From positions 91,869-155,868 of the forward strand of contig JADIZV010000003.1 in NCBI GenBank assembly GCA_016704565.1: a stretch of DNA of 64,000 bases, written 5' to 3'. The DNA is not shown here. The DNA comes from Candidatus Phosphoribacter baldrii. Its GTDB lineage: Bacteria; Actinomycetota; Actinomycetes; Actinomycetales; Dermatophilaceae. A report on this DNA, generated by a model with database tools, continues below.

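Follow-up and report, generated by a model that had tools for sequence, protein, structure and literature searches.

The word CGGCATAC was present 102 times in the window, 55 times on the + strand and 47 times as its reverse complement GTATGCCG, whereas 1 to 4 copies were expected. The preliminary description had listed a start position for each copy, and every one of the 102 was exact on recheck. The copies occur at 1.59 per kb with near-Poisson spacing and make up about 1.3% of the DNA, and the word was 96-fold over-represented relative to 1.36 Mb of control loci. Its fuller form is R-CGGCATAC-S. When codons were shuffled while the proteins were preserved, 4.0 copies were expected compared to 81 observed. 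The window as a whole (1..64000) is an ordinary actinobacterial chromosome carrying, among others, a Pup-proteasome locus, MetH and cyanophycin synthetase.

About 78% of the copies are intragenic and in frame, and the word is present at similar density in all six frame/orientation classes and in spacers. We give the reading phase as the word split into codons along the strand of the ORF (n, flanking base), preceded by the strand of CGGCATAC; all copies are exact. ORF 2-1408(+) carries the word at 136..143 (+, nnC-GGC-ATA-Cnn) and 202..209 (-, nnG-TAT-GCC-Gnn); ORF 1409-2062(+) at 1439..1446 (+, CGG-CAT-ACn) and 1513..1520 (-, nnG-TAT-GCC-Gnn); ORF 1993-3909(-) at 2098..2105 (-, nCG-GCA-TAC), 3475..3482 (+, nGT-ATG-CCG) and 3510..3517 (-, nnC-GGC-ATA-Cnn); ORF 4683-5489(+) at 4927..4934 (-, nGT-ATG-CCG); and ORF 5520-7535(+) at 6856..6863 (+, nCG-GCA-TAC), 7076..7083 and 7472..7479 (both -, nnG-TAT-GCC-Gnn). 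Copies follow in ORF 9701-10672(+) at 9822..9829 (-, nGT-ATG-CCG), 10527..10534 and 10614..10621 (both +, nCG-GCA-TAC); in ORF 11314-13722(+) at 11785..11792 (+, CGG-CAT-ACn), 12811..12818 (-, GTA-TGC-CGn), 13451..13458 and 13640..13647 (both +, nCG-GCA-TAC); in ORF 13742-16684(-) at 14293..14300 (+, nnG-TAT-GCC-Gnn), 14917..14924 (-, nnC-GGC-ATA-Cnn) and 16431..16438 (-, CGG-CAT-ACn); in ORF 16685-17638(-) at 17588..17595 (+, nGT-ATG-CCG); and in ORF 17632-19080(-) at 18798..18805 (+, nnG-TAT-GCC-Gnn) and 18895..18902 (-, nCG-GCA-TAC). ORF 19440-20357(-) holds 20237..20244 (+, nnG-TAT-GCC-Gnn) and 20309..20316 (-, nnC-GGC-ATA-Cnn); ORF 20369-21631(-) holds 20518..20525 (+, nnG-TAT-GCC-Gnn); ORF 21715-22914(+) holds 21872..21879 and 22133..22140 (both +, nCG-GCA-TAC); ORF 23062-24639(+) holds 23253..23260 (-, nnG-TAT-GCC-Gnn), 23371..23378 and 23461..23468 (both -, GTA-TGC-CGn), 23515..23522 and 23731..23738 (both +, CGG-CAT-ACn); ORF 24742-26253(+) holds 24994..25001 (+, CGG-CAT-ACn); and ORF 26480-28057(-) holds 27222..27229 (+, GTA-TGC-CGn).

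Further along, the word lies in ORF 29438-30844(+) at 29745..29752 (+, nCG-GCA-TAC) and 30339..30346 (-, nGT-ATG-CCG); in ORF 33693-33890(+) at 33716..33723 (+, nnC-GGC-ATA-Cnn); in ORF 35291-36643(+) at 35314..35321 (+, nnC-GGC-ATA-Cnn) and 36103..36110 (-, nnG-TAT-GCC-Gnn); and at 37404..37411 (-) and 37647..37654 (+) in the aldo/keto reductase ORF 37126-38556(-), which is absent from the GC3 gene set. ORF 38122-39210(+) contains 38859..38866 (-, nnG-TAT-GCC-Gnn) and 39089..39096 (+, nCG-GCA-TAC); ORF 39211-40071(+) contains 39356..39363 and ORF 42232-42831(+) 42482..42489 (both +, nCG-GCA-TAC); ORF 42740-43684(+) contains 43102..43109 (-, nnG-TAT-GCC-Gnn) and 43627..43634 (+, nnC-GGC-ATA-Cnn); ORF 43704-44969(+) contains 44449..44456 (-, nGT-ATG-CCG) and 44810..44817 (+, nnC-GGC-ATA-Cnn); ORF 46030-46884(+) contains 46048..46055 (-, GTA-TGC-CGn) and 46370..46377 (+, nCG-GCA-TAC); ORF 46906-47790(-) contains 47761..47768 (-, nCG-GCA-TAC); and ORF 47656-48942(+) contains 48236..48243 (-, nGT-ATG-CCG), 48618..48625 (+, nnC-GGC-ATA-Cnn) and 48876..48883 (-, nnG-TAT-GCC-Gnn). 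Near the right end, copies are found in ORF 59722-60705(-) at 59880..59887 (+, nnG-TAT-GCC-Gnn), 60157..60164 (-, nCG-GCA-TAC) and 60535..60542 (+, nGT-ATG-CCG); in ORF 60706-61785(-) at 60967..60974 (+, nGT-ATG-CCG), 61180..61187 (-, nCG-GCA-TAC) and 61705..61712 (+, nGT-ATG-CCG); in ORF 63688-63999(+) at 63773..63780 (+, nCG-GCA-TAC); and at the window end at 63993..64000 (-).

The word is built on the rarest codons (ATA, GTA and TAT), opposite to the codon preference, and 63% of all ATA, 36% of all GTA and 21% of all TAT codons fall inside it. Where a peptide is synonymously compatible with the word, the word is used at 81 of 114 positions (71%), compared to 1.4% in controls. Furthermore, word-compatible peptides are themselves 2.4 times commoner, with R-H-T enriched 5 times and V-C-R 18 times; the proteome is bent to fit the word.

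Further single copies lie outside called ORFs, at 4658..4665 (+), 7789..7796 (-), 8091..8098 (+), 8301..8308 (+), 9515..9522 (+), 19192..19199 (-), 30950..30957 (-), 31749..31756 (+), 32711..32718 (-), 32800..32807 (+), 41367..41374 (+), 41525..41532 (-), 46895..46902 (+), 58387..58394 (-), 58577..58584 (+) and 59682..59689 (-), and one at 52841..52848 (-) in the spacer that separates MetH, whose annotated start is about 52806, from the M50 peptidase gene. Some copies form inverted pairs. Outside called ORFs and just 3' of the enoyl-CoA hydratase gene, 5499..5506 (-) is the left arm of a pair whose right arm, 5525..5532 (+), falls in ORF 5520-7535(+), which was called from stop to stop, and probably precedes the true start. 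In the TauE gene (ORF 28195-28980(+)), 28585..28592 (+, CGG-CAT-ACn) is paired with 28607..28614 (-, nGT-ATG-CCG) across a 14-nt spacer, and in the M50 peptidase gene (52909-54042(+)), which also carries the word at 52959..52966 (+, GGC-GGC-ATA-CCG), 53061..53068 (-, GGG-TAT-GCC-GTC) and 53075..53082 (+, GCG-GCA-TAC) are separated by 6 nt. The copies at 29276..29283 (+) and 29288..29295 (-), outside called ORFs, are the left and right arms of an intergenic hairpin, CGGCATAC-CCGT-GTATGCCG (29276-29295). Copies of the Neisseriaceae DUS and of the Pasteurellaceae USS frequently form pairs at terminators. In contrast, the window showed no terminator inverted-pair excess (5 close pairs within 40 bp, 6.3 expected by chance) and no concentration of words in spacers, and both observations may count against an uptake tag.

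Clear terminator-like hairpins with the word, which would fit an uptake tag, were seen in two related metagenome loci picked by an inverted-pair search, a 21-bp stem in L324 and CTGCGCGGCATACCG... in L325. These longer hairpins could also hint that the word is the core of a repeat element, mobile or palindromic, that has dispersed (REP/BIME/MITE), a reading that we find barely credible: flank information is <0.5 bit at each position, the in-frame copies in genes arose by substitution without indels, and a true REP-like element, a clustered intergenic 22-bp palindrome in locus L036, is quite unlike the word.

We found no strand skew of the word in any of 23 loci, the window (55 versus 47) and 22 others (all P ≥ 0.29). 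In the window short-range spacing was near random (CV 0.88 versus 0.99, P=0.11), and islands free of the word were absent across 454 kb. Chi and KOPS of E. coli are likewise 8-bp, non-palindromic and over-represented, and Chi and KOPS/AIMS-type octamers are read by translocases or nucleases, so the word could be thought a polar recombination signal (Chi-like, for AdnAB/RecBCD) or architectural signal (KOPS-like, for FtsK). Those octamers are, however, strongly co-oriented with replication and far less dense, whereas our word is unskewed, several-fold denser than Chi and not G-rich, which makes a polar signal highly improbable. TRS, the 8-bp non-palindromic actinobacterial repeats of the clt locus, are read with varying specificity by TraB, the conjugative dsDNA translocase of Streptomyces plasmids, and comprise a few clustered repeats in plasmid clt plus scattered chromosomal look-alikes. 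They differ from the word in not forming thousands of evenly spread copies, and no TraB gene was seen here.

Comparison of orthologues indicated that word copies arose in place from near-matches via C>A, C>G, C>T, T>G and other changes; as several substitution types create the word, what is targeted is the word itself rather than any single kind of mutation. In MetH(-), 49053..49060 (+, nnG-TAT-GCC-Gnn) corresponds to CTACGCCG at the same place in relatives; 49623..49630 (+, nnG-TAT-GCC-Gnn) and 49972..49979 (-, nCG-GCA-TAC) are common to the Knoellia locus L010, the latter being CGGCCTAC in others; 51154..51161 (-, nCG-GCA-TAC) is common to loci L009/L011 and again CGGCCTAC in others; and 49551..49558 (-, nnC-GGC-ATA-Cnn) and 51781..51788 (+, nGT-ATG-CCG) also lie in this gene. 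In the ARC ATPase(+), 56487..56494 (-, GTA-TGC-CGn) is common to L002, L009 and L010 (GTCTGCCG in others) and 57335..57342 (-, nnG-TAT-GCC-Gnn) to L009 and L010 (GTACTCCG in others). In the Pup-ligase family gene(+), relatives have ACGCGTAC or ACGCCTAC for 62044..62051 (+, nCG-GCA-TAC) and GTTCCCCG or GTACCCCG for 63287..63294 (-, nnG-TAT-GCC-Gnn), and the MAG lineage L003 has CGGCCTAC for 62914..62921 (+, nCG-GCA-TAC). Once present, the word persists: from genome to genome, its positions are retained at about double the rate of ordinary 8-mers (9/10 versus 0.46, 13/18 versus 0.39, 11/15 versus 0.32 and 6/8 versus 0.19), a difference that may partly reflect parallel gains where compatible positions are saturated. 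Among seven near-identical assemblies 1 of 34 word positions was polymorphic, namely 55666..55673 (+), where the window has the one-mismatch copy CGGCACAC and L081 and L086 have CGGCATAC. The 8-bp duplex word as a whole is under a force that promotes the fixation of any completing substitution and the retention of copies. This force acts whatever the frame or strand, within genes as well as in spacers, with a strength of log-odds about 5 per potential site.

A VSP-repair (Dcm/Vsr-type) bias, with gain only by T>C (A>G) inside a methyltransferase site, was ruled out, because word creation needed transversions and, at positions 5 to 7 among others, GC>AT changes.

The window genome strongly avoids GTAC, CTCGAG and GCCGGC, indicating an active history of restriction-modification, and also avoids CGTACG. 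The word as a restriction-modification target, i.e. a host-avoided site, was ruled out by its enrichment. Avoidance of GTAC, CGTACG and GCCGGC is one route by which the word could be a neutral by-product; the others are context mutation (deamination of GTACGCCG to GTATGCCG) and codon or amino-acid usage. In keeping with this, the window species has about 6-fold less GTAC than expected, and CGGCGTAC, normally the commonest one-off neighbour, was found 0 times in the window where 22 were expected and at 0.16 of expectation in relatives. However, about 22 missing CGGCGTAC are too few to account for an excess of about 114 words. Depletion is nearly as strong for other CGNCGTAC words (0.26 to 0.30), yet their ATAC derivatives do not accumulate (CGACATAC, 1 versus 0.7). 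Moreover, GTAC density is near normal in word-rich relatives (1.7, 1.9 and 2.1 per kb in loci L001, L325 and L211), turning the precursors seen in orthologues into the word takes transversions at several positions, codon-aware shuffles yield 1.6 to 4 copies, and the word's codons are the rarest. A neutral origin is therefore largely refuted here, and we consider it very improbable.

One-mismatch words were at background both in the window (42 versus 36) and in relatives (70 versus 72), which implies that the benefit is all-or-none. This need for a perfect 8-mer, together with orientation independence and even coverage, fits duplex binding by an abundant chromosomal protein (a nucleoid-associated protein, a condensin or translocase loader, or a self-marking silencer) with each site selected directly for its role in chromosome function, as does the cluster of 5 words within 100 bp in L324. 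Winged-helix domains of FtsK, SpoIIIE and TraB read 8-bp non-palindromic words. An uptake tag and a chromosomal binding site under direct selection could leave the same statistics, and this counts against the former. We nevertheless regard selected binding sites as unlikely: thousands of individually selected, amino-acid-changing sites demand an unusually large per-site benefit, the loader and translocase words KOPS and SRS are strand-polar whereas this word is not, and no candidate protein was identified.

The word is clade-restricted. CG-GCATAC is found in the window, Knoellia and Pedococcus, while the MAG lineages L002/L003 have a statistically distinct dialect, S-GCATAC-C-S, that keeps the core GCATAC (C at position -1 in 18/37 versus 2/110, P=5e-11). 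The sister genus representative Intrasporangium zincisolvens (L007) has another hyper-abundant octamer, the palindrome GACGCGTC, built around the 6-bp palindrome ACGCGT. It looks more like a HIP/methyltransferase pattern than an uptake-sequence dialect, an observation that goes against an uptake tag, and is formally the closer analogue of cyanobacterial HIP1 (GCGATCGC). The function of HIP1 is still debated, with methylation-linked repair, nucleoid structure and an uptake signal all considered. HIP1 and other cyanobacterial highly iterated palindromes resemble our word in being octamers that are 15- to 300-fold over-represented, at up to >1 per gene, in all frames and in spacers, with positions conserved between genomes beyond expectation and with lineage-specific variants. 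A further trait of HIP1 is periodic spacing over 10 to 90 kb; the spacing given above for the word is that within 64 kb. By analogy, a methyltransferase might read the core (GCATAC or a sub-word), and methylation-dependent repair or strand discrimination, or selection for a methylated structural mark of the nucleoid, might make and guard the sites; the flanks would be set by a second component, and the word would build up intracellularly, DNA exchange playing no part.

In line with this possibility, which we judge somewhat improbable, the word matches HIP1 in its 8-bp length, similar density and presence in all frames, and its positions are conserved above baseline, as has been argued for HIP1 (PMC5861425). 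Its 6-bp core is constant while the outer bases are lineage-specific, and HIP1 deviations fall in bases outside the methyltransferase site, according to Elhai (PMC4390886). The I. zincisolvens palindrome suggests that variable words may be a family trait, as with fast-changing methyltransferases, and the avoided GTAC, CTCGAG and GCCGGC attest to the restriction-modification history. On the other hand, HIP1 is palindromic with known methyltransferase sites (GATC, CGATCG), whereas the word is asymmetric (CGGCATAC differs from GTATGCCG) and is not known as the site of any methyltransferase, and no methyltransferase was found in the window. The Nanomotif supplement text has no methylation motif containing GCATAC, a weak point because the lineage may be unsampled, and the VSP-type version (T:G to C:G only) is excluded by the GC>AT changes and transversions. 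To our knowledge MutS/MutL are missing from Actinobacteria, so that a methyl-directed ratchet would need another repair system. In addition, HIP1 itself may act in transformation, which would merge this explanation with an uptake tag.

Our preferred reading, to which we assign a probability of roughly 0.4, is that CGGCATAC is a lineage-specific recognition word that most likely spread as a side effect of biased DNA exchange. A putative sequence-specific DNA-handling protein would read the word; conspecific fragments that carry it would be preferentially bound, taken up or transferred, and then recombined, so that word-bearing alleles would replace word-less alleles by molecular drive. The flank differences between sister lineages (CG-GCATAC versus S-GCATAC-C-S) would then reflect a co-evolving specificity of the putative reader. 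Molecular drive has reportedly been proposed for Neisseriaceae DUS and Pasteurellaceae USS, and recently for HIP1. The word shares much with DUS (GCCGTCTGAA and dialects) and USS (AAGTGCGGT): they are short non-palindromic words on both strands without polarity, at about 1 to 2.5 per kb, so that they take up about 1 to 2.5% of the genome, they lie in genes in several frames with a measurable effect on the proteome, and they form dialects round a conserved core in related lineages. One-off copies are few, with a ratio of perfect plus one-off to perfect copies of 1.35 here and 1.21 to 1.45 for DUS (PMC3630211). The word differs from DUS and USS in its host phylum, the monoderm high-GC Actinobacteria, in its unrelated sequence, and in being only 8 bp long with almost no extended consensus. 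It also lacks an AT-rich flanking extension like that of USS, a point against an uptake tag. Within the 64-kb window no ComP-type pilin, type IV/Flp filament or ComEA/ComEC is encoded, and we found no report in the literature of word-preferring DNA uptake in Intrasporangiaceae-like organisms. No member of this group is known to be competent or to take up DNA selectively, which also counts against an uptake tag. Micrococcus luteus, of the same order, undergoes natural transformation through Flp pili and ComEA/EC (PMC4322843), and HIP1 reportedly enhances transformation (bioRxiv 10.64898/2026.06.24.733823).

Hyper-abundant words are known from few groups, with Neisseriaceae DUS, Pasteurellaceae USS and cyanobacterial HIP1 as the examples, and it has long been asked whether drive, selection or repair gave rise to them. 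CGGCATAC is a further, very strong case from another phylum, with its share of the DNA, its synonymous use and its shifted peptides. Genera rich in the word, the dialect, sister genera free of the word and one that has a different, palindromic word instead form a natural comparative series with some culturable members (Knoellia remsis ATCC BAA-1496 and Pedococcus bigeumensis). With this series one could test directly whether actinobacteria take up or transfer DNA in a sequence-specific manner, trace the reader protein through phylogenetic profiling, and weigh drive against selection. The word is also a sharp taxonomic and binning marker, and a candidate tool for better transformation of bacteria that are hard to manipulate. 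More broadly, we see even odds that Intrasporangiaceae-like Actinobacteria own an unrecognised self-DNA recognition system of lineage-variable specificity, with a reader unrelated to ComP and strong enough to fill about 70% of synonymous opportunities and to alter peptides; its specificities would be CGGCATAC in the window lineage, Knoellia and Pedococcus, S-GCATAC-C-S in the two MAG lineages and, possibly, GACGCGTC in Intrasporangium. If so, Gram-positive high-GC bacteria would gain their first uptake-sequence or HIP-type system, and gene-flow barriers among abundant soil and activated-sludge bacteria would be set by that system.

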